A stretch of DNA of 64,000 bases from Methanobacteriota archaeon (GTDB taxonomy: Archaea; Halobacteriota; Bog-38; Methanoflorentales; Methanoflorentaceae): the NCBI GenBank assembly GCA_963719035.1, contig CAVRAO010000002.1, forward strand, positions 64,001 through 128,000. Direction: 5' to 3'. Positions 7,012 through 19,751 of this stretch are shown here, piece after piece. Numbering within the stretch: the first letter of the stretch is position 1; each line of letters opens with the position of its first letter. The notes under the pieces were generated by a model that searched no databases, was not told the DNA's origin, and was given only the letters and a program-made list of their open reading frames with translations. Made by a program: the position numbers and the translations under genes.

Positions 7012-8397
<1,386 letters not shown>

Positions 8398-8486: not shown

Positions 8487-9542
8487 TTACAACTGTTTAA
8501 TGACCGTTTCTACTTCTTGTCTATAGGCATCTTGATTGAACCCGGCAATGCACGTTAAGGCCATAGCTCCGCCAGCCCCTACACCTTCTTTGACTTCTCC
8601 TTCTTCATATTTCTGCAGTGCGCTAATCGAGCTTTTTGAGAAATCTGGGTAAGCGCTGAATGCATCGATTTCCAACGCTTCAATCAACTCAATCAACCGC
8701 GCTGACGTGTCGTCAAAGACATATTTTGTCGTTGCTAAAACGAGATCGTCGCTAAGGTTGAGCTCCTTTAGGACAGCAGCAATAGTGCCCATTTGGGTTC
8801 CGCCGGCTAAAACAACATCTTTCCCGCTATTTAGGAAGCCTTCGGTCAGCCCAACAACACAAGGCATCATGGGGTCACCAAATAGCTTGATTGCCCGCAT
8901 TGGATCGGCCTGTAAGCTTCCTGGACTGATTGATGCTCCTTGCATAGCTGTTCTGACGACTTTTTCCTTTAAGGCCGTAGGATTTGCGGCAAAGCTGCTG
9001 CTAACGTTTGCGCTGTAGCCGAGTGCTCTTAGCACACACAATGCAGTGGTCGTTCCTCCAGGAATCGTCTCTCCTATCACTGCCAAATCGCATTCGCAAC
9101 ATCCTGCAAGCTTGCGGGAAGCGTCGCGGATTGTGCTGGCGTCAGGAACGCCAGGTCGAAAACGGATGTCATAGCCGTGTTTTGCACGAAGGTCATAGTA
9201 GGGCACGCCTGGGATGATCTGCAAACCTGAATTAATCAAGAGATGTGCGGATTGCGAAAGATTTAGGCCCGCACGCGTAAGAACGGCCGGAGTAGCAGCA
9301 CCAGAGGGCGCATCAGACATAACCCCGATCGTCTTTAACTTTCCGTAGGAGACGATTTCTGCGTCGGCGGCAGGCGTATGTTGAACGTACTTCTGGATGC
9401 TTCCTGCCCCTGAAATGCCAGTTACGGTCGCGATCTCCGAGTTGGAAAGAACTAGCAAAAAAAGTGGACGCTCTGTGCTGCCAAATCTCTTTCTGATATT
9501 TGATGATTCGCCTGAATAGTTTCGGCAGTTCGTTACCCACAT
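8487..9542 (-). CDS. cobT: Archaeal CobT, nicotinate mononucleotide-dependent phosphoribosyltransferase
   Basis: GETIPGGTTTA, LAGGTQM, VKEGVGAGG motifs. Confidence 0.88.
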   Translation of the reverse strand: MWVTNCRNYSGESSNIRKRFGSTERPLFLLVLSNSEIATVTGISGAGSIQKYVQHTPAADAEIVSYGKLKTIGVMSDAPSGAATPAVLTRAGLNLSQSAHLLINSGLQIIPGVPYYDLRAKHGYDIRFRPGVPDASTIRDASRKLAGCCECDLAVIGETIPGGTTTALCVLRALGYSANVSSSFAANPTALKEKVVRTAMQGASISPGSLQADPMRAIKLFGDPMMPCVVGLTEGFLNSGKDVVLAGGTQMGTIAAVLKELNLSDDLVLATTKYVFDDTSARLIELIEALEIDAFSAYPDFSKSSISALQKYEEGEVKEGVGAGGAMALTCIAGFNQDAYRQEVETVIKQL

Positions 9543-9544
9543 GA

Positions 9545-10861
9545 CTAGCGACGCACTTCGCGGTTTGTTGCATCCGCACCTGTTGCGCTCTTTTGTTCGA
9601 GCCGAGGGAGCGTATAAGCGCCAAATGGCATCACTATGATTCGCGCGTTTGGCCCGTGCTTTTTGAGCGTTGCTTGAAGGGCTTCTTCTAAATTTCGAGA
9701 GCAGAGTAAGAATGCTCGCTCGACAATTTCCTTTTGAAGCTCTGAGACAAGGTAGATGTCTGCTTTTTGAGTGAGTTTCGCTAAAATTCCGGCTTTGTGT
9801 CCGCCAATTTCGAAAGCATAGTCGAGCCGATCAACAAGCTCCTGCTTGTCTTGTGCTTCGTGAATCCAACGCTCAAATACCTTTTCTCCTAGTCCTTCTG
9901 GACATTCAGCTGCTAAAACGATGGCGCCTCCGTCTTTGAGCGCGTGTTTCGCATTATCGAGCGCTTTTTGTGCTTGAAAGAGGTTAATATCCTTCGGTGA
10001 GCCTCCTGCTGATGCCAGAACAACGTCTGCGAGCTCTGGTATTGGTACTATATACATAGAATCGACGACTTTTACCCCTTCGCGGTGCGCTCGAATCGGA
10101 TCACCTGCGACAGCTTTAACGATTTGTTTTTGTGCGTTAAGCACGACGTTCACGATAAAATCGCATCCAATTAGTTGGCCTGCGTCTTCGAGATCCTCTC
10201 TCACGGGGCTGTCCAGCCTTCCTGCTTCAGCGTTTGGCTGAAGCATCAGTTTATGATTCGATTCAATCGTCTCGCGCGCACAAACGCCCGGTAGCAATGA
10301 CTTATATCCACCGCTGTATCCAGCAAAATAATGGAGCTCAACCGTGCCGAGGCAAACTCGCACGTTAGAGCTGAGGACTACTTTGTTTGCATAAACTCGT
10401 GTCCCTCTTGGCGTTGTGCCGACAAAAACGCAGTTATTGCCGTCGTGGTTGATGCACCGGTAGCGATCAAAAACATCATCACCCACGAGTTCTTTCATCT
10501 CTGACTTTGAAAGAGGCCGGTGAATTCCGAGAGCAAACAATATCGTTATCTGGCTGTCAGGAATCTCTGCTTTCCGCAATTCGTTAAGAACGTGCGGCAG
10601 CAGCTTTTTGGTTGGGGTCGGTCTGGTTACGTCGCTCGCTATGATGACTACGCGCAAATCCTTTTTTGAGCCTTTCCGTTCTGACGCGATTTCGTAGAGC
10701 GTGGGAGTTCCAATTGGATCATTCAAAGCGCCAGCGATTTCGCTTTCCTCATCCAATACTTCGATTTCGAGTGGTTCTATAACCTGAATTAGGTTATTCG
10801 TGTCGAGAGTAACTGAGGTTTTACCCTTTCCATAATTGAGAGTGACTTGCGATTTCCCCAT
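9545..10861 (-). CDS. larA: LarA-family nickel-pincer 2-hydroxy-acid racemase/epimerase
   Basis: SDVTRP, ALGIHR, HYFAGYSGGYK, SNH motifs carry the LarA catalytic and cofactor residues. Confidence 0.88.
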   Translation of the reverse strand: MGKSQVTLNYGKGKTSVTLDTNNLIQVIEPLEIEVLDEESEIAGALNDPIGTPTLYEIASERKGSKKDLRVVIIASDVTRPTPTKKLLPHVLNELRKAEIPDSQITILFALGIHRPLSKSEMKELVGDDVFDRYRCINHDGNNCVFVGTTPRGTRVYANKVVLSSNVRVCLGTVELHYFAGYSGGYKSLLPGVCARETIESNHKLMLQPNAEAGRLDSPVREDLEDAGQLIGCDFIVNVVLNAQKQIVKAVAGDPIRAHREGVKVVDSMYIVPIPELADVVLASAGGSPKDINLFQAQKALDNAKHALKDGGAIVLAAECPEGLGEKVFERWIHEAQDKQELVDRLDYAFEIGGHKAGILAKLTQKADIYLVSELQKEIVERAFLLCSRNLEEALQATLKKHGPNARIIVMPFGAYTLPRLEQKSATGADATNREVRR

Positions 10862-11014
10862 CAAGGACTCTTTCGTCTTTTTTAGTATATCAATATTCAA
10901 TAGGTACGAAGCGGACCGGTGAATGGTGCGGAACTAGGTTCATATAGAATTGTTACTATAATAAGAATCTGGGATACGTTAGAGTCCATTAAAAACGAGT
11001 GGAGGGGCCTAAAG

Positions 11015-12289
11015 TTGTATAGATCATATGCTGAGATGCCAAAAATCGAGCTCCCAGGCGATATAGACGTTAAGATTAGCGACAGCACATTAAGAGACGG
11101 GGCACAAATGCCCGGAATCGTGCTTAAGAAAGCGCAAAAGCTTAGGATATTTGAATTATTGCACGATATGGGTATAGAAAAGCTGGAGTGCTTCCTCTTC
11201 AACGAGCGTGATCGCGTGTTAGCCCGCGAAATGCTTGGCTGTGGTTATGAACTCCCTGAGGTTACCGGGTGGGCGCGCGCTAACACGGAAGACATCGACA
11301 TGAGCATCAGTATGGAAGGCATAAATGAGGTGGGCATCCTCATGTCTATATCGGATACGCATATTTTCGACAAACTTGGCTTCGTAGATCGAGAACAGGC
11401 GCGCGACAAGTATACTGAAGCCCTTCAATATGCAGTGGATCATGGGCTGAAGGTTCGATGCCATCTTGAAGATATTACGCGAGCAGATATCCCCAACTTC
11501 GTTATCCCCTTGGTGAAGGATTTACTAAGCATTGCCCCTGATGCGATTTTCAGAATCTGTGATACTCTGAATTATGGCTTGCCGTTCGAAGAGACCCCAT
11601 TGCCGTACAGTATACCCAAGATCGTGCGTAACTTTAAAGAGATTGGTGCGGCGAATCTCGAAATGCACGTTCACGATGATTTTGGGCTCGGCGTGGCTAA
11701 CACTTTAGCAGGATACTGGCACGGAGCGAATTGGTCAAGCTTGACCTTCATGGGTGTAGGAGAGCGGGCAGGAAATACCGAGCTTGAAAAGATTTTAACC
11801 TTCCTTTTCTGCCGAGTCAAAGGGTTTGAAAGGTATAACCCCCGACCAGTAACAGAGCTTACACGCTATTTAGAACATGAGCTTGCTTTTAGACTACCAA
11901 GGAACAAGGCCATCGTCGGTGAAAATATTTTCGCTCACGAGAGTGGCATACATACCGACGGCGTCTTGAAGAACCCTTTTACGTACGAGCCATTTCCTCC
12001 TGAGGTTGTAGGTGCAAAACGAGTTCTGCTTATTGGAGACTCGTCTGGGAGGGAAGTGGTCCGCCACAAGATGCAGGAAGTGTTGAACGAGCTTTTGGGC
12101 GTTGAAGTAAGCTTAAGGAAAAACGACCGCCGGATCAAGATGATCTGCAACGACATACATAAGCTCTACGACGAAGAGGCCCGCAATTCAAGCGTTTCAG
12201 ATGATGAGTTGAAGGAATACGCCATCAAGTACTTCCTGACTAGCGAGGAAGTGTTCCCACCCTGGATTGTTCACACGCGTTATGAATAA
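11015..12289 (+). CDS. DRE-TIM acetyl-CoA condensing enzyme, Re-citrate-synthase-like
   Basis: DSTLRDG, HVHDD, GERAGN; RCHLEDITRAD and SDTHIFDKL resemble clostridial Re-citrate synthase; TTG start 9 nt after GGAGG. Confidence 0.75.
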   Translation: MYRSYAEMPKIELPGDIDVKISDSTLRDGAQMPGIVLKKAQKLRIFELLHDMGIEKLECFLFNERDRVLAREMLGCGYELPEVTGWARANTEDIDMSISMEGINEVGILMSISDTHIFDKLGFVDREQARDKYTEALQYAVDHGLKVRCHLEDITRADIPNFVIPLVKDLLSIAPDAIFRICDTLNYGLPFEETPLPYSIPKIVRNFKEIGAANLEMHVHDDFGLGVANTLAGYWHGANWSSLTFMGVGERAGNTELEKILTFLFCRVKGFERYNPRPVTELTRYLEHELAFRLPRNKAIVGENIFAHESGIHTDGVLKNPFTYEPFPPEVVGAKRVLLIGDSSGREVVRHKMQEVLNELLGVEVSLRKNDRRIKMICNDIHKLYDEEARNSSVSDDELKEYAIKYFLTSEEVFPPWIVHTRYE

Positions 12290-12296
12290 TTAGCTC

Positions 12297-12596
12297 GTGG
12301 AGGCAGGAATTACGAAGGAATGTCGCTTTCGCCGGCGCGATAACATCTCGCTCGGCGGTGGAAACCTCGAGTACCATTCGTGTTCCCTTGCCGGCGAGGG
12401 CATTATGATTCACCAAGCACAGTGCGATGAGTGCGGGATTGAGCAGCTATTGCGGAGTTTTGACTGTCGTCACATGCGACCACAGAAGCGGTTCACAAGC
12501 GGAGGAGAGTCGAAGGAGTGTGTGAGCTGCGCCGTGAAGGGTAGCGTATTAGATAAAAGGCGCAGCACATGCGTAGCGTGTCCAGAGAAAGAGTAG
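12297..12596 (+). CDS. Small Cys-rich protein with two Cys4 repeats
   Basis: 99 aa, starts 7 nt after synthase stop; two C-x19/20-C-x13-C-x2-C modules. Confidence 0.65.
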   Translation: MEAGITKECRFRRRDNISLGGGNLEYHSCSLAGEGIMIHQAQCDECGIEQLLRSFDCRHMRPQKRFTSGGESKECVSCAVKGSVLDKRRSTCVACPEKE

Positions 12597-12614
12597 CTAC
12601 GTTTCTGCCTACAA

Positions 12615-13643
12615 TTATCTCCTTTTCACGTAGCTTTCGACCTTGTCGATAATGCAGTCAACAACTTGGCTTGTACGAAGGCCACCTCCAAGGTCGTACG
12701 TTGTCTTGCCTTCGGCAATTACCTCTTGTAGGGCTTCGAAGATCATAGTTGACTCTTGCGAGCTGCCTAAATAATCGAGCATCCAAGCTCCAGCGAGCAC
12801 AGAGGCAGTGGGATTTACTTTATCAAGGTTCCGGTACTTTGGAGCAGATCCGTGAGCGGGTTCAAACATCGCATAGTTGTCGCCAAAATTAGCCGAATAG
12901 ATCATGCCAATACTGCCTACTAACGCCGCGCATTCTTCGCTAATAATGTCCATAAAGAGGTTGGTCGAAAGCAATATCGACTTGTTGAATATTTGTGGGT
13001 TTTTCACAAGTTGTTGTGCCACGTTGTCTACGTGATATTCCCACAGGTCGATACTCGGATAGTCACTCTTTGTCTCTCGAACAGCTTGGAGAAAAGCGCC
13101 GTCCGTCTGTTTCAGTATGTTACTTTTGTGGATCGCGACAACGGTTTTCCAATTTCGCTTTTTTGTCTCTTTAAAAGCAAATTTGGCGATTTTTCGGCTC
13201 GCCGATTTCGTGATTTTTCGCAGAGCGACAAACATATCGGCTGAGAGTTGTACTTCACTGCCTGCGTACATACCTTCAGTCGCTTCACGCACACATACAA
13301 AGTCTACGTCACCAAGAGGACGGGGTGTGTTGGTAAACGTCTTTATTGGACGAACGTTTGCGTAGAGATCCATCTCTTGTCTAATAGTGACCGCTACACT
13401 GCGCGGGGAGCCCGGCCCTCCCGGAGTTGTAGTCGGCCCTTTGAAACAGGCTTGAGTTGAATTAATCACGTCTCGAGTCTCATCGGGAATCAATGAGTCC
13501 CCTGCGTGAGATTCGTACCAGTCGCTTCCGGCTTGACATAGGATCATGTTTACTGGCGCTCCTGTAGCAGTCATGACACGCATCGTTGCCTTGACTAACT
13601 CAGGTCCGACCCCATCTCCCAGAATTACAGCTACATCTTGCAT
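12615..13643 (-). CDS. Isocitrate/isopropylmalate dehydrogenase family, probably isocitrate dehydrogenase
   Basis: GDGVGPE, KGPTTTP..RSVAVTIRQ, EPAHGSAP motifs. Confidence 0.85.
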   Translation of the reverse strand: MQDVAVILGDGVGPELVKATMRVMTATGAPVNMILCQAGSDWYESHAGDSLIPDETRDVINSTQACFKGPTTTPGGPGSPRSVAVTIRQEMDLYANVRPIKTFTNTPRPLGDVDFVCVREATEGMYAGSEVQLSADMFVALRKITKSASRKIAKFAFKETKKRNWKTVVAIHKSNILKQTDGAFLQAVRETKSDYPSIDLWEYHVDNVAQQLVKNPQIFNKSILLSTNLFMDIISEECAALVGSIGMIYSANFGDNYAMFEPAHGSAPKYRNLDKVNPTASVLAGAWMLDYLGSSQESTMIFEALQEVIAEGKTTYDLGGGLRTSQVVDCIIDKVESYVKRR

Positions 13644-13687
13644 TAACCTCACCCAATGGCGTTGTCGTTAAAAGGTCGTCGAGCTGA

Positions 13688-14200
13688 TCAGTCCGTATAT
13701 CCCCCACAGGCGTCTAAGTAGGGCATTAGTCCACCTTTCTCGAGCAATTCTTGCATAAACGTTGGAATTGGCTTGAAACGGAGTTCTATTTGTCGATACT
13801 CGTTGCGAATTACTCCCGCATCAAAATTCACTTCTAGGTCTTCTCCCGGGGCCACCTCTTTCGAGATGCCCGCACATTCTATAAGAGGAAGACCTATGTT
13901 GAAGCTATTTCGGTAGAATATCCGTGCAAAGGACTCTGCGATGATGCACGAGATACCACAAGCTTTGAGAACCTGTGGCGCCTGTTCTCTTGACGAACCG
14001 CACCCAAAGTTTGCCGCTGCAACGAGAATAGGATTTCTTAAACCTTGGCAATCCTCATAAAAGTGCGAATCGATTGATTCAAAAGTATGTTTAGCAAGCT
14101 TGTTCAAATCGAGCTCATCATACTTGTACTTCCCTGAAATAATTTCATCCGTGTTGGTATCGCTAGGGAATACTCTGACAACCTCTCCTTTAATGTTCAT
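13688..14200 (-). CDS. LeuD/HacB-type dehydratase small subunit
   Basis: [28 protein letters not shown] motifs. Confidence 0.9.
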
Positions 14201-14223
14201 AGCTCTATCCTTTCTTATGTGTT

Positions 14224-15465
14224 CTAGCCATCGCGATTTCGTGGATCTGTGATACTTCCCTCGATGGCGCTTGCTGCTGCCGTTGATGGACTCGAAAGGT
14301 AAATAAATGACTTGTCGTTGCCCATCCTGCCCTTAAAGTTCCTATTTTGAGTAGAGAGGGCGACTTCATCGTCTCCTAAAGCAACTGTCCTCCCGATGCA
14401 AAAACCACACCCTGGCGGGCCAATAGAGGCACCTGCCTTTAGGAATGTCTCTATGATGCCTTCTTTTAGTGCCTCGAGAAGGACTCCGCGGCTTGCTGGA
14501 TACACCACTAGTCGAGCTCTGCTTCGATGGCCTTTCAAAATGCGTGCCGCGTCTCGAAGATCTTCAATTCGCCCGTTCGTGCACGAACCAATGCATACTT
14601 GATCAAGCTCTGTGCCTTCAAGCTCTGTTACTGGCACGACGTTATCGACCCTATGAGGTTTAGCAATCATAGGAACGACGGTATCGGCGCTTATGTGAAC
14701 CTGTTTGGCATACACAGCGCCCTCATCAGGGTACAACGGTTTGAAATCATTACTTCGGCCGTAGCGCGTCAAATACGCTTTTACTTTTTCATCTGCAGCG
14801 CAGAGACCGACTTTAGCACCGGCTTCGATGGACATGTTAGAGAGTGTAGCGCGCGATTCGACACTCATCGCCTCAACCGTTTCGCCGCAGAATTCGAGCG
14901 CTTTGTATGTAGCCCCATCTGCCGTTATTCGCGACACAAGCTCTAAGAAGACGTCTTTTGAGTGAACGTTTTGAGGGAGTTCTCCGGAGACTTCCACCTT
15001 AACAGTCTCTGGGACCTTTAACCACGTTTTTCCGTATGCCATAACAGCGGCCACGTCGGTCGACCCCATACCGGTGGCAAAAGCACCAAGTGCTCCATGG
15101 GTGCACGTGTGGCTATCGCCCCCAACTATTACTTGGTAGGGCGATGCATACCTCTCGAGAACAATTTGATGACAGATCCCGTCTCCGTTTTCATAGAAAT
15201 CCATGCCGTAACGGCGGGCAAACTGTCGCATAAAAGCTTGAACGTTTGACACTTTTTCAGAAGGTGAGGGTGAAGCATGATCACAGAAAGCAACCACCTT
15301 CTTCGGATGCTTGACTATATGGTCGCCAAGTTGCTGAATCGCGAGTGGCAGCGTGCCGTCATGAGCGAAAACTAAATCGACCGGCACGGCTACTATCTCC
15401 CCACTTTCAGCATCCACCCCACTTCGGTTTGATAGTATTCTCTCAGAAATCGTTTTCAATGGCAC
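14224..15465 (-). CDS. LeuC/HacA-type [4Fe-4S] dehydratase large subunit
   Basis: [29 protein letters not shown] motifs. Confidence 0.92.
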
Positions 15466-15590: not shown

Positions 15591-16284
15591 CTAACGATTG
15601 CCTCCACTCACACGCGCCGGCCGCTTGGCTCGCCTCGATCGTAATACGTACACGAGAATAACGACTGCTAAGACGAGAAATACCGCAACCACAATGTTGT
15701 AGTAGGAAGCAGCAATGTCGTGCCAGTTAGCACCTAGATAGAACCCCGCAAAAGCCAATGCAGCGTTCCACGGCAATGAGCCTAAAAAAGTGTAAGTAGA
15801 GAACTTCTTTAGATCCATTCTACAGATTCCCGCGGGGATAGACGAGTAAGCCCGTACGCCGGGAATCATTCTGCTTAAAAAAAACGAAAATCTCTCCATA
15901 TTTTTCAAACCATTCATTTGCGAGGTGCAGTTCACGTTCAGTAATTCCCACATACTTCCCGTAGCGTTCAAAAAAATAATTACCGCCAAAAAAAGCAATG
16001 AAATACGTAATGAGCGAGCCAACGAGACACGCGAAAGTACCAACAATAACCACTATCCAAAAGTCAAAGCGCCCTAAATAGGCTAGATAGCCCGCGTAGG
16101 GCAATATTATCTCGCTCGGCAGCGGAATACCAATGCTCTCTATAACCATTCCTATGAAAATGCCAGCATACCCGTATGTGTCGATTACACCGAGGATAAA
16201 AGTTGAAACCTCTAGTAGCCAATTGTACAGCTGATCGAGGAAGGATTGCGCAATTAATGATTGTATTAGGTGCAGGTTATACAT
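15591..16284 (-). CDS. DedA family membrane protein, frameshift in homopolymer near 15880
   Basis: ESIGIPLPSE in 5' ORF; SRMIPGVR in 3' ORF; break lies in a poly-T run on the coding strand. Confidence 0.85.
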
Positions 16285-16584: not shown

Positions 16585-17862
16585 TCACAAACTGTGTGAT
16601 CGTTTGAGGAAGTAAAGCGCAATAGGGATGCCGAGAACTACCCCAAGAATTCGCGATATCGTCGTCGAATATGCAGCCCCTAAGGCACCTAAAGTTGGGA
16701 TCAAGATCCAATTCAAACCAATATTTGCCCCAGCCATATAAGTCGCGTTTAGCACGTGTACCTTTTGATTGTCAGTTGCATCCAACAGCAGAGACGTTGG
16801 GATAGTCAGCAGATTGATGGCAAATCCTATTATAAGAACGTTGATAAAAACGATAGAATCTGCGAAGTTGGGACCGAAGGCGAAAATCATTACCTGGCCC
16901 CCGAACGCATACGTTATTCCAACTGCGACGAGCCCGGCTACGGCAAAGTAGCCAAGGTATTTGAAATATTCTTTTTTGGAAATCTTTCTCTCATGCACTG
17001 CTTTACAGATTATTGGAAAAAATGCACTTGTCAATGCAACGACGGCCATATCACCAATACCTATATAACTTACTGCAGGCGTGTAAAGTCCGACCTGCGT
17101 CATGGTCGACAACAGTGAGATCAGGATGGTATCTACGTGCTGCCATATCATCCCAAGCATTCCTGCAAGTCCGAACCACATAGCGGGTATTAGTATTGCA
17201 CGGTCGAATATTGGCCTGAAGTTCAGCTTATAGTCGTCAATTCGCCGGCTGAGTATGAAATTCAGCATCAAGCTGGCAAAGGCAGCGATAATGATCGCAA
17301 GTATGACACCAGGCACGCCAAGTCCTGCAATCAGAAAGACGAACGCCAACGTGGCAAAAGTGATTCGCTCGGCAATCTGAATGATCGAGATATACTTCAT
17401 GTCCTGGTAAATGCAGAATACCGCGCTGAACAAGCTGCCTATGCCGCCCATTACGAGCGTGACCGACATTAAGACGATCAGCACTTTGACCTCGAGTGAA
17501 TACGGCGTGAGGAGAGCGAATACGATTACGACAAACATCGTCGCAAGGGACATGAGAAGCTTAAGGCCCATCGAGCTAAAAATGAGCTTATGGGTATCTT
17601 CGGGCTTTTTGGCCCCTTCACGAATTATGACCGTGTTGATTCCGAAATCAGTAAAAATGCCGAACAAAGAGACGAACGAGATCACCGTGATATAGGATCC
17701 AAAGTCTGAGATCGGGAGTGTGCGAGCGATGTAGATGGTGATAACAAACGAGATTACGGCCGAGATCGCATTTCCACTAAACAAAAACCCCGTGTTCGTA
17801 AGACCACGTGCAAGTGATCCAAGTTTTTGCTTGCTCTTACCTTCGCACTTGGTTTGTGTCAT
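16585..17862 (-). CDS. Polysaccharide flippase (Wzx/MOP family), copy A
   Basis: Many TM helices; ARTL..SDFG and DFGINT motifs; glycosylation gene context. Confidence 0.88.
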   Translation of the reverse strand: MTQTKCEGKSKQKLGSLARGLTNTGFLFSGNAISAVISFVITIYIARTLPISDFGSYITVISFVSLFGIFTDFGINTVIIREGAKKPEDTHKLIFSSMGLKLLMSLATMFVVIVFALLTPYSLEVKVLIVLMSVTLVMGGIGSLFSAVFCIYQDMKYISIIQIAERITFATLAFVFLIAGLGVPGVILAIIIAAFASLMLNFILSRRIDDYKLNFRPIFDRAILIPAMWFGLAGMLGMIWQHVDTILISLLSTMTQVGLYTPAVSYIGIGDMAVVALTSAFFPIICKAVHERKISKKEYFKYLGYFAVAGLVAVGITYAFGGQVMIFAFGPNFADSIVFINVLIIGFAINLLTIPTSLLLDATDNQKVHVLNATYMAGANIGLNWILIPTLGALGAAYSTTISRILGVVLGIPIALYFLKRSHSL

Positions 17863-17934
17863 CTTATCGGTGCTCACGTCCTTTAGCCGTATTGACAAAA
17901 AGTAGCAAAAATAGTCAAGCTCGGCCGGCTTATG

Positions 17935-18396: not shown

Positions 18397-19680
18397 TCAC
18401 AAACGGTGCGCCCGCTTGAGGAAGTAAAGCGCAATAGGGATGCCGAGAACTGCCCCTAGACTTTGCGATATCGTCGTCGCATACGCAGCCCCCAAGGCAC
18501 CTATAGTTGGGATCAGGATCCAATTCAAACCAATATTTACCCCTGTGAGATAGGTCGCGTTTAGCACGTGCACTTTTTGAAGGTTAGTTGCATCCAACAG
18601 CAGAGAGGTTGGGATGGTGACCAAATTCACAGCAAATCCTATGATAAGGATGTTGATGAAAACGATAGAATCTGCGAAGTTGGGACCGAAGAAAAAAACC
18701 ATCACCTGGCCCCCGAACGCATACGTTATTCCAACTGCGACGAGCCCGGCTACGGCAAAGTAGCCAAAGTACTTAGACAACTCTTTTCTGGAAATCTTTC
18801 TCTCATGCGCTGCTTTTGAGATTATGGGAAAAAATGCCCCTGTCAGTGCAATGACTGCCATATCGCCTATGCCGACATAGTTTACTGCAGGTGTGTAAAG
18901 TCCGACCTGTGTCATGGCGGAATTCGACAAAAGTGAGATCATGATGGTGTCTATTCGTTGCCATATGAACCCAAGCATTCCTGCAAGTCCGAACCACATA
19001 GCCGGTATTAGTATTGCACGGTCGAATATTGGCCTGAAGTTCAGCTTATAGTCGTCAATTCGCCGGCTGAGTATGAAATTCAGCATCAAGCTGGCAAAGG
19101 CAGCGATAATGATCGCAAGTATGACACCAGGCACGCCAAGTCCTGCAATCAGAAAGACGAACGCCAACGTGGCAAAAGTGATTCGCTCGGCAATCTGAAT
19201 GATCGAGATATACTTCATGTCCTGGTAAATGTTGAATACCGCGCTGAACATGCTCCCGACGCCGCCCATTACGAGCGTGACCGACATTAAGACGATCAGC
19301 ACTTTGACCTCGAGTGAATACGGCGTGAGGAGAGCGAATACGATTACGACAAACATCGTCGCAAGGGACATGAGAAGCTTAAGGCCCATCGAGCTAAAAA
19401 TGAGCTTATGGGTATCTTCGGGCTTTTTGGCCCCTTCACGAATTATGACCGTGTTGATTCCGAAATCAGTAAAAATGCCGAACAAAGAGACGAACGAGAT
19501 CACCGTGATATAGGATCCAAAGTCTGAGATCGGGAGTGTGCGAGCGATGTAGATGGTGATAACAAACGAGATTACGGCCGAGATCGCATTTCCACTAAAC
19601 AAAAGTCCTGTATTTTTGATACCACGTGCTAGTGATTCACGTCTTAGCTTGCCTCTATTCTCTCCATTGGTTTGTGTCAT
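18397..19680 (-). CDS. Polysaccharide flippase (Wzx/MOP family), copy B
   Basis: Close paralog of copy A. Confidence 0.88.
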   Translation of the reverse strand: MTQTNGENRGKLRRESLARGIKNTGLLFSGNAISAVISFVITIYIARTLPISDFGSYITVISFVSLFGIFTDFGINTVIIREGAKKPEDTHKLIFSSMGLKLLMSLATMFVVIVFALLTPYSLEVKVLIVLMSVTLVMGGVGSMFSAVFNIYQDMKYISIIQIAERITFATLAFVFLIAGLGVPGVILAIIIAAFASLMLNFILSRRIDDYKLNFRPIFDRAILIPAMWFGLAGMLGFIWQRIDTIMISLLSNSAMTQVGLYTPAVNYVGIGDMAVIALTGAFFPIISKAAHERKISRKELSKYFGYFAVAGLVAVGITYAFGGQVMVFFFGPNFADSIVFINILIIGFAVNLVTIPTSLLLDATNLQKVHVLNATYLTGVNIGLNWILIPTIGALGAAYATTISQSLGAVLGIPIALYFLKRAHRL

Positions 19681-19751
19681 CTTATCGGTGCTCACGTCCT
19701 TTGGCGGATTGAAAAAAGTAAGCAAAGATAGGCAGGCGCGGCCGGCTTATG

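Follow-up and report, generated by a model that had tools for sequence, protein, structure and literature searches.

The closest described counterparts of the locus analysed here are the Re-citrate synthases of C. kluyveri and Syntrophus aciditrophicus (EC 2.3.3.3, K05942), in which a LeuA-superfamily catalytic domain is found without the LeuA regulatory domain, and, for its hydro-lyase, the two-subunit enzymes of M. jannaschii, whose methanogen homoaconitase HacAB and isopropylmalate isomerase LeuCD were reportedly described by Drevland et al. A picture of two clades has been drawn for Re-citrate synthases (PMC12016533). Additionally, there are Firmicutes operons (of the Thermoanaerobacter, C. 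difficile or Heliomicrobium type) with the same three predicted steps as those proposed below; for instance, synthase, aconitase and isocitrate dehydrogenase (IDH) are consecutive in Thermovenabulum (L041) and Thermovorax (L044). Among archaea, 2-oxoglutarate is described in PMC3017947 as being formed in Methanosarcinaceae via citrate synthase together with aconitase and isocitrate dehydrogenase (Icd), and M. paludicola, according to Sakai et al. 2011 (PMC3146512), requires L-glutamate and lacks a route to 2-oxoglutarate.

The locus lies in the window, i.e., the whole stretch of 64,000 nucleotides that was analysed, and its features are collected in Table 1. The four genes around which a sequence-only reading had built its proposal are present as ORFs at the positions it gave, and the synthase is indeed convergent with the string formed by the dehydrogenase, LeuD and LeuC genes. 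The choice of the synthase start is uncertain (GTG 10919, TTG 11015 or ATG 11036), its relatives being 417-429 aa long. The full arrangement is retained in 18 loci of the same class (those with contigs that reach far enough), all four genes are grouped in one locus of another family (L110), and the adjacency of synthase and Icd genes is conserved in at least three families. A LarAH6-type malate racemase gene (528, above the model cut-off of 500) is found on the other strand, divergent, 114 bases upstream of the synthase.

Table 1. Features of the locus, in positions of the window
Feature	Position	Strand	Pfam
Synthase, putatively forming citrate: DRE-TIM enzyme of the LeuA superfamily that condenses acyl-CoA and 2-oxoacid	10919/11015-12289	+	
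Conserved Cys-rich ORF, 99 aa	12297-12596	+	
Predicted Icd, a short dehydrogenase of the beta-decarboxylating kind	12615-13652	-	Iso_dh
Small subunit (LeuD/HacB type) of an aconitase-family hydro-lyase with two subunits, predicted to be an aconitase	13688-14200	-	Aconitase_C
Large subunit (LeuC/HacA type) of the same predicted aconitase	14224-15465	-	Aconitase

Judged by gene content, paralogue sets, missing alternative routes, phylogeny, linkage and phyletic pattern, the best reading, to which we give a probability of about 0.6, is that the locus encodes an oxidative arm of the TCA cycle leading from oxaloacetate and acetyl-CoA through citrate and isocitrate to 2-oxoglutarate, with a LeuCD-type aconitase. 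The LeuA-superfamily synthase would condense acetyl-CoA and oxaloacetate to citrate, the LeuC/LeuD-type Fe-S hydro-lyase would convert citrate via cis-aconitate to isocitrate, and the short dehydrogenase would oxidatively decarboxylate isocitrate to 2-oxoglutarate, this last step being proposed because the sole candidate for an Icd in Methanosarcinaceae is its orthologue. The same pathway had been put forward from the sequence, and it is the best-supported one after checks of paralogues, absences, orthology and displacement; by contrast, the assignment of its first enzyme to the Re-synthases is not supported by the trees, and M. paludicola provides counter-evidence (see below).

In the synthase, Pfam detects an HMGL-like domain (51-294) and HCS_D2 (332-389) only. 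No LeuA_dimer regulatory domain was found by this search, in agreement with what had been noticed, and the synthase resembles the K05942 enzymes in this respect as well as in being linked to aconitase-family and Iso_dh genes, an association found in organisms without Si-citrate synthase. It stays under every NCBIfam cut-off, the top model being LEU1_arch (247 vs 485), and the expectation that automated annotation would miss its function is half true, as IMG/JGI has given the name 'citrate (Re)-synthase' to a protein 96% identical to it. Three of the motifs that had been recognised (EVTGWARA, SDTHIFDKL and RCHLEDITRAD) are present in the translation, while the fourth, CDT..YG...LP.S.P, does not occur literally: the actual sequence at this place is CDTLNYGLPFEETPLPYSIP, with seven residues instead of three between YG and LP. 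On clustering at 50%, the synthase family forms a single cluster, and the next score falls from 571 to 281 bits.

Membership of the synthase in the Re-citrate synthase family had been proposed, but the protein branches as the sister of the K05942-like clade, outside it. In trees where that clade is anchored by JGI names and a statement on Kuenenia (PMC8027424), and not by characterised sequences, the synthase groups with it from outside (SH-like 99 in FastTree with 153 rows; SH-aLRT 99 in IQ-TREE with 59 rows), at 33-42% identity, and 'citrate (Re)-synthase' is the JGI name in 14 of the 120 matches listed from this clade. Both share RCH[LF]EDxTRAD, TGWxRA and an insertion ending in LPxSxP. By contrast, the canonical HESGIH is kept in the synthase and missing from the K05942-like clade, which shows TxAGIH and FRDGQQ where the archaeal clade of the window shows HESGIH and RDG[ASC]QMPG; the window's own departure at the active site is RDGAQ in place of RDGEQ. 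To our knowledge, this archaeal clade has no characterised member, and since it is sister to the C. kluyveri-type clade, Re-face chemistry may be guessed for it. The Firmicutes operons differ as follows: their synthases are placed in a nifV-like region of the tree, remote from the clade of the window, against which they score 177-188 bits, the aconitase encoded there is fused (645-694 aa) and has another loop, and the IDH retains S-x-N and DIISD.

The genome holds three LeuC, three LeuD, three Iso_dh and four synthase genes. LeuC, LeuD and dehydrogenase genes form three sets, namely a leucine set on C6, with a terminal LeuB over its equivalog cut-off (407 > 393), a coenzyme-B-like cluster on C8, in the order synthase, large subunit, small subunit (with a YLRT loop) and AksF-like dehydrogenase, and the extra set of the window. 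The sequence-only reading had called for a check of whether separate leu and aks sets exist or the window holds the only leuCDB genes of the genome; two further sets are present. It had also asked about a lack of gltA and acnA, and gltA and acnA/B are lacking from the assembly, which is 91% complete, every missing route being an absence from this assembly: no Citrate_synt match was obtained, AcnA/B was not found, and the Aconitase-family genes are the three of LeuC type only. For the reductive route, the same assembly yielded neither a SucC above cut-off nor a full-length fumarate-reductase flavoprotein. A doubtful supply of oxaloacetate in this genome speaks against the reading, as no PEP carboxylase of either type, malic enzyme or GTP-PEPCK was found in it, a divergent ATP-PEPCK-like gene being the only one present of the candidates looked for; PycB was not found in any of six genomes of the class.

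The hydro-lyase pair shares with M. jannaschii HacAB and LeuCD its two-subunit architecture, its Pfam domains and the GCGSSRE motif. Its large subunit passes PRK00402 (538.6 > 385) and IPMI_arch (530.7 > 410), and its small subunit passes the subfamily model LEUD_arch (147.9 > 108.95) and misses all equivalog cut-offs. The LeuCD and HacAB equivalog cut-offs are reached neither by the large subunit (HacA_Meth, 455.6 < 550; LEU2, 408 < 611) nor by the small one (leud, 152 < 246; HacB models, 131-144 < 230), and the large subunit also stays under the cut-offs of known aconitase families (PRK07229, 386.5 < 612; acon_putative, 334.6 < 719). On fused-aconitase models, the large subunit scores 62-77 bits more than its two paralogues. 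In the tree, window-type LeuC differs from the M. jannaschii enzymes as a third clade (SH-aLRT 100) with a long stem, which is not near the bacterial fused aconitases. The small-subunit loop, GKYKYDEL, is invariant in three families and has an insertion of one residue relative to GKYLRTT (aks-type) and GKYLVLN (leu-type) in the paralogues, i.e., YKYDEL with an extra residue versus the YLRT-like and YLVL-like loops of these two paralogues; Jeyakanthan et al. are said to have described, in 2010, a role of this loop in specificity. A predicted aconitase function of the pair is proposed because of a displacement pattern, and not because of family membership. Among six genomes with the synthase that were compared, three (G000, G055 and G033) have window-type LeuCD without a further extra aconitase, an AcnA-like ORF of 920-937 aa replaces it in two (G184 and G363), and a fused 661-aa aconitase form takes its place in the sixth (G139).

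Regarding the dehydrogenase, the motifs KGPTTT...RSVAVTIRQ and STNLFMDIISE are present in the translation as quoted. Among solved structures, the short NAD-IDHs 6lky, 6m3s and 6ltf match it best, with 235-242 bits over a full-length alignment, compared with 222 bits for homoisocitrate dehydrogenase and at most 180 bits for IPMDH. The AksF model is not reached (AksF2_Meth, 298 < 540). Two Methanosarcina-like genomes (G184 and G375) have exactly three Iso_dh genes, of which one is AksF-like, another LeuB-like and the third of the window type, and the latter adjoins the synthase. The dehydrogenase is 64-68% identical to Methanosarcina-like and Methanocella-like copies, including the only third Iso_dh of the Methanosarcina-like genomes, and by this comparison it is the orthologue of their sole Icd candidate; together with the short homodimeric NAD-IDHs, the annotated Icd of Methanosarcinaceae (Mmah_0582) and of Methanocella (MCP_0437) count among its closest known counterparts. 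By contrast, curated IDH models are not reached (PRK08997, 294 < 510; PRK09222, 283 < 509), and three positions, the meaning of which we take to be that in E. coli IDH (where S-x-N is presumably the substrate motif), depart from the IDH pattern: S-x-N is S-V-A, DIISD is DIISE and NLYGD is NLFMD. The same holds for the archaeal clade to which it belongs (S-V-A/S, DIISE and NLFMD), and we know of no characterised member of this clade.

The phyletic pattern was surveyed in 401 genomes of the phylum, each at least 90% complete. A synthase orthologue without Si-citrate synthase or SucC was observed in 27 of them, from eight families (f1, f6, f7, f9, f11, f13, f15 and f27), and neither kind of synthase in 89, from six families, with SucC in 88 of these 89. 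The idea that each genome must have one route leaks, as 21 of the 23 genomes of family f10 and both of f17 have none of the three markers (synthase orthologue, Si-citrate synthase and SucC) beyond weak Citrate_synt matches.

This pattern suits a route to 2-oxoglutarate and goes against the most serious rival, which we consider unlikely, that the locus is a third module of 2-oxoacid chain elongation with another substrate (homocitrate-like, citramalate-like or an unknown hydroxy-tricarboxylate). It is true that the four proteins belong to the LeuA, LeuCD and LeuB superfamilies and miss all equivalog cut-offs, including those of aconitase and IDH, and that neither characterised specificity is matched by the loop of the small subunit or by the pocket residues of the dehydrogenase. 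However, the genome already contains two LeuA/CimA-type synthases, an aks-like cluster and a leu set, the dehydrogenase corresponds to the sole Icd candidate of Methanosarcina-like genomes, and a true aconitase type is present wherever window-type LeuCD is missing in the six genomes compared. Moreover, the synthase is present in four genomes in which McrA is missing (G033, G043, G053 and G004), and G033 has all four genes. A coenzyme B role (AksA, HacAB, AksF) was rejected in view of these McrA-less genomes, the missed equivalog cut-offs and the separate aks-like cluster on C8. Two observations favour chain elongation and are the chief counter-evidence to an oxidative branch. In the Methanosarcinaceae-like family f2, 55 of 64 genomes have an ordinary citrate synthase together with the window-type synthase, which would consequently be redundant there. 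In the second case, all four genes are carried by a genome (G055) with a synthase ORF identical to P0114, which NCBI/UniRef names as a protein of M. paludicola SANAE; given the reported glutamate requirement of this organism, the module must be insufficient there or do something else, and the requirement speaks against the pathway being active, at least in M. paludicola.

It is less probable still that the dehydrogenase and LeuCD act as Icd and aconitase on citrate from elsewhere, the synthase having a separate role beside icd. Such a division would fit the ordinary citrate synthase of Methanosarcina-like genomes, which is located elsewhere and is described in PMC3017947, alongside aconitase, as the enzyme of the pathway; the same source, however, mentions an in-frame amber codon in the M. 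mahii citrate synthase gene, and nine of the 64 f2 genomes have no Citrate_synt match. The lack of a characterised member in the synthase clade leaves room for a separate role, against which stands its retained adjacency to Icd. In addition, no further citrate-forming enzyme was found in the genome of the window or in 26 more genomes from eight families. Finally, maleate or D-malate can be substrates of LeuCD- and LeuB-type enzymes, and the racemase gene stands beside the synthase wherever a locus of the class extends that far, in a lineage missing the usual oxaloacetate-forming enzymes. Even so, a malate-linked module working through this nickel-pincer enzyme on D-malate or a related hydroxy-dicarboxylate instead of citrate is very improbable: every comparative argument for an Icd and an aconitase opposes it, and no locus outside the class (L023-L028, L032, L033, L036 and L105-L110) has the racemase close to the synthase, so that the linkage can be simple inheritance.

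The oxidative-branch reading leads to a wider and more tentative proposal, which we would hold at slightly less than even odds: a third, archaeal-only clade of LeuA-superfamily citrate synthases may be the working, and often the sole, citrate synthase for much of the phylum, combined in some lineages with a LeuCD/HacAB-derived aconitase that the YKYDEL loop would re-target to citrate. If so, the archaeal clade would cover all 64 Methanosarcinaceae-like genomes sampled, Methanocella-like and Bog-38-like genomes and several non-methanogenic lineages, the 'missing TCA cycle' of Methanocella would be an annotation gap, and the stereochemistry assumed for 13C-labelled glutamate in these archaea would need rechecking.

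The Cys-rich ORF, absent from the sequence-only reading, is a possible member of the module. It lies eight bases 3' of the synthase, between this gene and the dehydrogenase, and had no match in a Pfam search; just 17 close homologues came up, each either without a name or called 'hypothetical'. Of the 18 related loci tested, all of the same class, 15 keep its frame open, at 43-78% identity, and eight Cys positions are conserved, two CxxC motifs among them.

The four open reading frames from which the sequence-only reading had proposed a route to 2-oxoglutarate are indeed present in the ORF listing, a synthase on the forward strand converging with a dehydrogenase, a LeuD-like small subunit and a LeuC-like large subunit on the reverse strand. 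We give odds of roughly six in ten to the interpretation that this module is an oxidative arm of the TCA cycle ending at 2-oxoglutarate. In such a branch, citrate would be formed by a synthase from an archaeal clade sister to the Re-citrate synthases, the aconitase step would be performed by a separate (window-type) clade of the LeuCD family, and 2-oxoglutarate would be produced by an archaeal short isocitrate dehydrogenase (Icd). Among the sequence features that had been put forward, the synthase's lack of a LeuA regulatory domain was borne out by the Pfam scan, where LeuA_dimer is absent, and the quoted motifs were found in the translations, except for a single pattern whose spacer is longer than had been written. 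In NCBIfam, all four proteins belong to the LeuA, LeuCD-HacAB and LeuB-AksF-IDH superfamilies, and none of them reaches an equivalog cut-off: the best equivalog score of the synthase is 247 (cut-off 485), the dehydrogenase scores 298 with AksF2 (cut-off 540) and 294 with IDH (cut-off 510), and both hydro-lyase subunits pass only broad archaeal subfamily models. Contigs from RNA libraries (four runs, two studies) that are 95-99% alike span parts of all four genes; as they come from relatives, and the libraries possibly contain DNA, they give a weak hint that the module is expressed.

Coordinates of the module, its neighbours and other genes discussed in the text (window positions unless a contig or locus is named)
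Feature	Position	Strand	Remarks
Synthase	10919/11015-12289	+	HMGL-like and HCS_D2 (Pfam)
Dehydrogenase	12615-13652	-	Iso_dh (Pfam)
LeuD-like small subunit	13688-14200	-	Aconitase_C (Pfam)
LeuC-like large subunit	14224-15465	-	Aconitase (Pfam)
LarA homologue, nickel-pincer	9545-10900	-	'malate racemase, LarAH6 family', 528 > 500
CobT-like gene	8487-9542	-	NF003372, 368 > 306
Cys-rich ORF, 99 aa	12297-12596	+	8 bases past synthase stop; 8 conserved Cys, two CxxC
Frame-split genes, window	7485-8054 + 8125-8397; 15591-16046 + 15820-16284	-	
Frame-split genes, other loci	L114 1253-2675; L115 671-2168		
Tandem Polysacc_synt (Wzx-like flippase) genes	16585-17898, 18397-19725	-	very similar, ~500 bases apart
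Divergent ATP-type PEPCK-like protein, 591 aa	contig C12, 316419-318194 (L111 1420-3195)		PF01293, 59 bits

The possibility, raised earlier, that these would be the only leuCDB genes of the genome does not hold. A phmmer scan of the six-frame ORFs turned up four synthases, along with three copies each of the large subunit, the small subunit and the dehydrogenase; other sets exist on contigs C6 and C8 and there are further synthases, which makes the window set an extra one. Separate leu and aks-like sets, for which a check had been suggested, can be recognised: the C6 string (large subunit, small subunit, dehydrogenase) ends in a protein above the LeuB equivalog cut-off (407 > 393), and on C8 a synthase adjoins a large-small-dehydrogenase string with a YLRT-like loop in its small subunit and an AksF-like dehydrogenase. 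Two more LeuA/CimA-type synthases, on C6 and C2, are each broken by a frame change in the assembly. The module was rejected as a second coenzyme B set, the aks-like cluster lying separately on C8 and the synthase also occurring in four genomes in which McrA was not found (G033, G043, G053 and G004), which therefore sets the module apart from coenzyme B synthesis.

The same genome (2.19 Mb in 13 contigs, completeness score 91%) was searched for alternative routes, with positive controls that were detected in named reference genomes. As regards the missing ALTERNATIVES, no Citrate_synt match was found, and the Aconitase family is represented solely by the three genes of LeuC type, in line with the suspected lack of gltA and acnA. 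Likewise, a succinyl-CoA synthetase beta subunit above cut-off was not found, and the fumarate reductase flavoprotein family gave nothing but short matches to its N-terminal FAD fold. At a completeness of 91%, it is likely that the alternative routes are absent.

The proteins close to the synthase, at 60-96% identity, come from archaea, with source names including Methanocellales, Methanoperedens and Altiarchaeales. The closest of them (96%) bears the JGI name 'citrate (Re)-synthase' and most others carry generic names, which shows that a pipeline had already made the Re-synthase call on one close relative, via an IMG automatic KO name; K05942 is the KEGG Re-citrate synthase, according to PMC11964587. 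A search of 1.84 billion cluster representatives places the family in one cluster (62% identity, 571 bits); scores then fall to 281 bits, and many of the representatives that come next lack an NCBIfam match at 1e-60. In a FastTree tree of 153 sequences, the window family (nine rows, seven lineages) is sister to a clade of 29 rows, which are next-best cluster representatives, with an SH-like support of 99, and IQ-TREE repeats this grouping on 59 sequences (SH-aLRT 99). A search with P0147, a member of the sister clade, retrieved Bacteroidales and Planctomycetota proteins, and 'citrate (Re)-synthase' is the JGI name of 14 of 120 among the matches listed. Additionally, PMC8027424 reports 55% identity between a Kuenenia homologue and the C. 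kluyveri enzyme. Because of these JGI names and the identity of the Kuenenia homologue, we take the sister clade to be that of the C. kluyveri-type Re-citrate synthases (K05942-like), the trees themselves having been built without characterised sequences. Both groups have RCH[LF]EDxTRAD, TGWxRA and an insertion with an LPxSxP end, whereas RDG[ASC]QMPG is found in the window family alone, where the canonical HESGIH is retained.

PMC12016533 puts the identity between a second bacterial type of Re-citrate synthase and the first at only about 28%. We take the operons of Thermovenabulum and Thermovorax, each encoding a synthase, a fused aconitase and an IDH in this order, to represent this second type on the basis of their layout and taxonomy; in both trees, their synthases fall in a nifV-like region, distant from the window synthase. 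No chain named Re-citrate synthase was present among ten PDB matches at E <= 1e-10, an Atlas search with the homologue P0114 produced generic HMGL-like clusters only, and the cluster members of ten synthase neighbours had no useful names. In the open full-text literature (without subscription papers and supplements), the titles and passages retrieved describe no such enzyme in a methanogen, and Methanoflorens was not found in connection with citrate; a Methanothermobacter paper only describes the coenzyme B enzymes as (R)-citrate synthase homologues.

The best solved relatives of the dehydrogenase are short NAD-type IDHs (6lky, 242 bits; 6m3s, 236; 6ltf, 235), compared with 222 bits for the Thermus homoisocitrate dehydrogenase and at most 180 for isopropylmalate dehydrogenases. 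Two Methanosarcina-like genomes, G184 and G375, each carry three Iso_dh genes and no more: an AksF-like, a LeuB-like and a window-like one, the last being 64% identical to the window dehydrogenase and adjoining the synthase orthologue. The Methanohalophilus genome paper (PMC3017947) has Methanosarcinaceae making 2-oxoglutarate via citrate synthase, aconitase and Icd. Since the other two Iso_dh proteins of G184 and G375 are AksF-like and LeuB-like, the window-type dehydrogenase would be, by elimination, the Icd of Methanosarcinaceae. The archaeal clade differs from IDHs in having S-V-A/S instead of S-x-N, DIISE instead of DIISD and NLFMD instead of NLYGD, changes that appear compatible with the predicted IDH function.

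With respect to the LeuCD pair, the window-type large subunits form a clade of their own in an IQ-TREE tree of 19 large subunits (SH-aLRT 100, stem 0.77; seven rows from the class of the source archaeon, Methanocella-like genomes and family f6), separate from the aks-cluster and leu clades. An origin of the window-type LeuC from a bacterial fused aconitase was discarded, as it is favoured by NCBIfam scores but not supported by the tree. The window-type small subunit has an invariant loop (GKYKYDEL) with one extra residue, as opposed to GKYLRTT in the aks-type and GKYLVLN in the leu-type paralogues; in the M. jannaschii enzymes, substrate specificity is set by this loop. Six synthase-bearing genomes were compared for their aconitases. 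In the source genome, in G033 and in the Methanocella-like G055, the window-type pair is the sole extra member of the aconitase family. The pair is missing from G184 and G363, which have an AcnA-like ORF of 920-937 aa, and from G139, which has a fused aconitase-like ORF of 661 aa. On these gene contents, an extra aconitase-family enzyme that varies beside a constant synthase would look like non-orthologous displacement of aconitase.

Searches for the synthase orthologue, Citrate_synt and SucC covered the same 401 genomes from the phylum, each with a completeness of 90% or more. For the synthase, the distribution of best E-values is bimodal (<= 1e-150 for orthologues and >= 1e-58 for the rest, with a few contig-end fragments between 1e-98 and 1e-130), and the orthologue threshold was chosen after this gap was seen. 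The figures are given as plain counts because related genomes are not independent. The orthologue occurs without a Citrate_synt match or SucC in 27 of the 401 genomes, from eight families (f1, four plus the source genome; f6, one; f7, two; f9, ten; f11, three; f13, four; f15, one; f27, one). Another 89 genomes (f3, f12, f14, f22, f23 and f24) have neither the orthologue nor Citrate_synt, and SucC is present in 88 of them, which fits a reductive route. Both synthases are found in 55 of the 64 genomes of the Methanosarcinaceae-like family f2, as well as in f32, f36 and G363. In 21 of 23 f10 and both f17 genomes (90-99% complete), the three markers are absent, weak matches to Citrate_synt (about 1e-21 to 1e-24) aside, and these organisms may have another route to 2-oxoglutarate or be auxotrophs.

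Within the class of the source archaeon, the synthase is present in 22 of 24 genomes, the two without it being 83% and 60% complete. The order cobT-like gene, larA, opposite-strand synthase and converging dehydrogenase-small-large genes is found in 18 of the 20 loci of this class (L007-L022, L029-L031, L035 and L037); in the remaining two, the contig ends before the dehydrogenase (L020) or before the large subunit (L007). Coming from one lineage, this conservation may be plain inheritance. The four genes are also together in G033 (L110), a 1.07-Mb single-contig genome from another family, and the synthase lies 3-9 kb from Icd in Methanocella-like genomes. In two Methanosarcina-like genomes (G184, L105; G375, L106), the synthase is right beside icd, and the ordinary citrate synthase gene is located elsewhere.

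Three arguments can be raised against the 2-oxoglutarate reading, the strongest being the glutamate need of M. paludicola. Its genome paper (PMC3146512) reports that only Icd (MCP_0437) and fumarase were found, concludes that, with neither branch found, 2-oxoglutarate cannot be made, and states that the need for yeast extract in growth is satisfied by L-glutamate. G055, whose synthase ORF is identical to P0114 (named M. paludicola SANAE by NCBI and UniRef), has the synthase, a window-type dehydrogenase 9 kb off and a window-type LeuCD elsewhere, and all four module genes are also present in the complete genome of Methanocella sp. MCL-LM. Because a M. paludicola-like genome has these genes despite the reported need, either the pathway is too weak or not expressed under the conditions of that culture, or the module has another function. 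Second, most f2 genomes also have an ordinary citrate synthase, with which the module's synthase would be redundant. Against this argument, Citrate_synt matches are absent in 9 of the 64, and the ordinary citrate synthase gene of M. mahii has an in-frame amber codon, according to PMC3017947. Third, the source of oxaloacetate in the class is unclear: the pyruvate carboxylase B subunit (PycB) was not found in any of six genomes of the class, and in the source genome no PEP carboxylase of either type, malic enzyme, Ldh_2-type malate dehydrogenase or GTP-PEPCK was found. The only candidate found in it for forming oxaloacetate is the 591-aa PEPCK-like protein, which scores 145 with NF006821 (cut-off 369).

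Glutamate synthesis requires 2-oxoglutarate, and methanogens are the textbook example of 'incomplete' citric acid cycles, either oxidative or reductive. The peat lineage of the window is in the same position as Methanocella, with neither known branch found. If the oxidative reading is true, the module would supply the missing 2-oxoglutarate branch for at least eight families, would point to Methanosarcinaceae having another citrate synthase next to icd and would add a new substrate specificity, with a clear sequence signature, to the LeuCD/HacAB family. Metabolic models of abundant peat methanogens, otherwise scored as glutamate auxotrophs, would also be corrected. As a Re-type synthase with aconitase and IDH is already known in anaerobic bacteria, this would be an extension and not a new principle.

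Some neighbouring genes deserve mention. The LarA/CobT-like pair is found just upstream of the synthase, on the opposite strand, in every locus of the class that reaches that far, and near the synthase in no locus outside the class; in a lineage that lacks the usual enzymes for forming oxaloacetate, a malate racemase is unexpected. In 15 of 18 related loci, the 99-aa ORF stays open and is conserved, and the three loci that gave no match all lie outside the class. It is often called from an internal Met, as 63 aa; it has no Pfam family, and its close homologues, only 17, are all unnamed or 'hypothetical'. The frame-split genes are ordinary ones, for two LeuA/CimA-type synthases, an aspartate/ornithine carbamoyltransferase and a VTT/DedA-domain membrane protein, and their interruption looks like the result of indel errors in the assembly, not of genuine decay; in that case, gene numbers for this genome should be treated with caution. 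Finally, the tandem Polysacc_synt genes look like a recent duplication.
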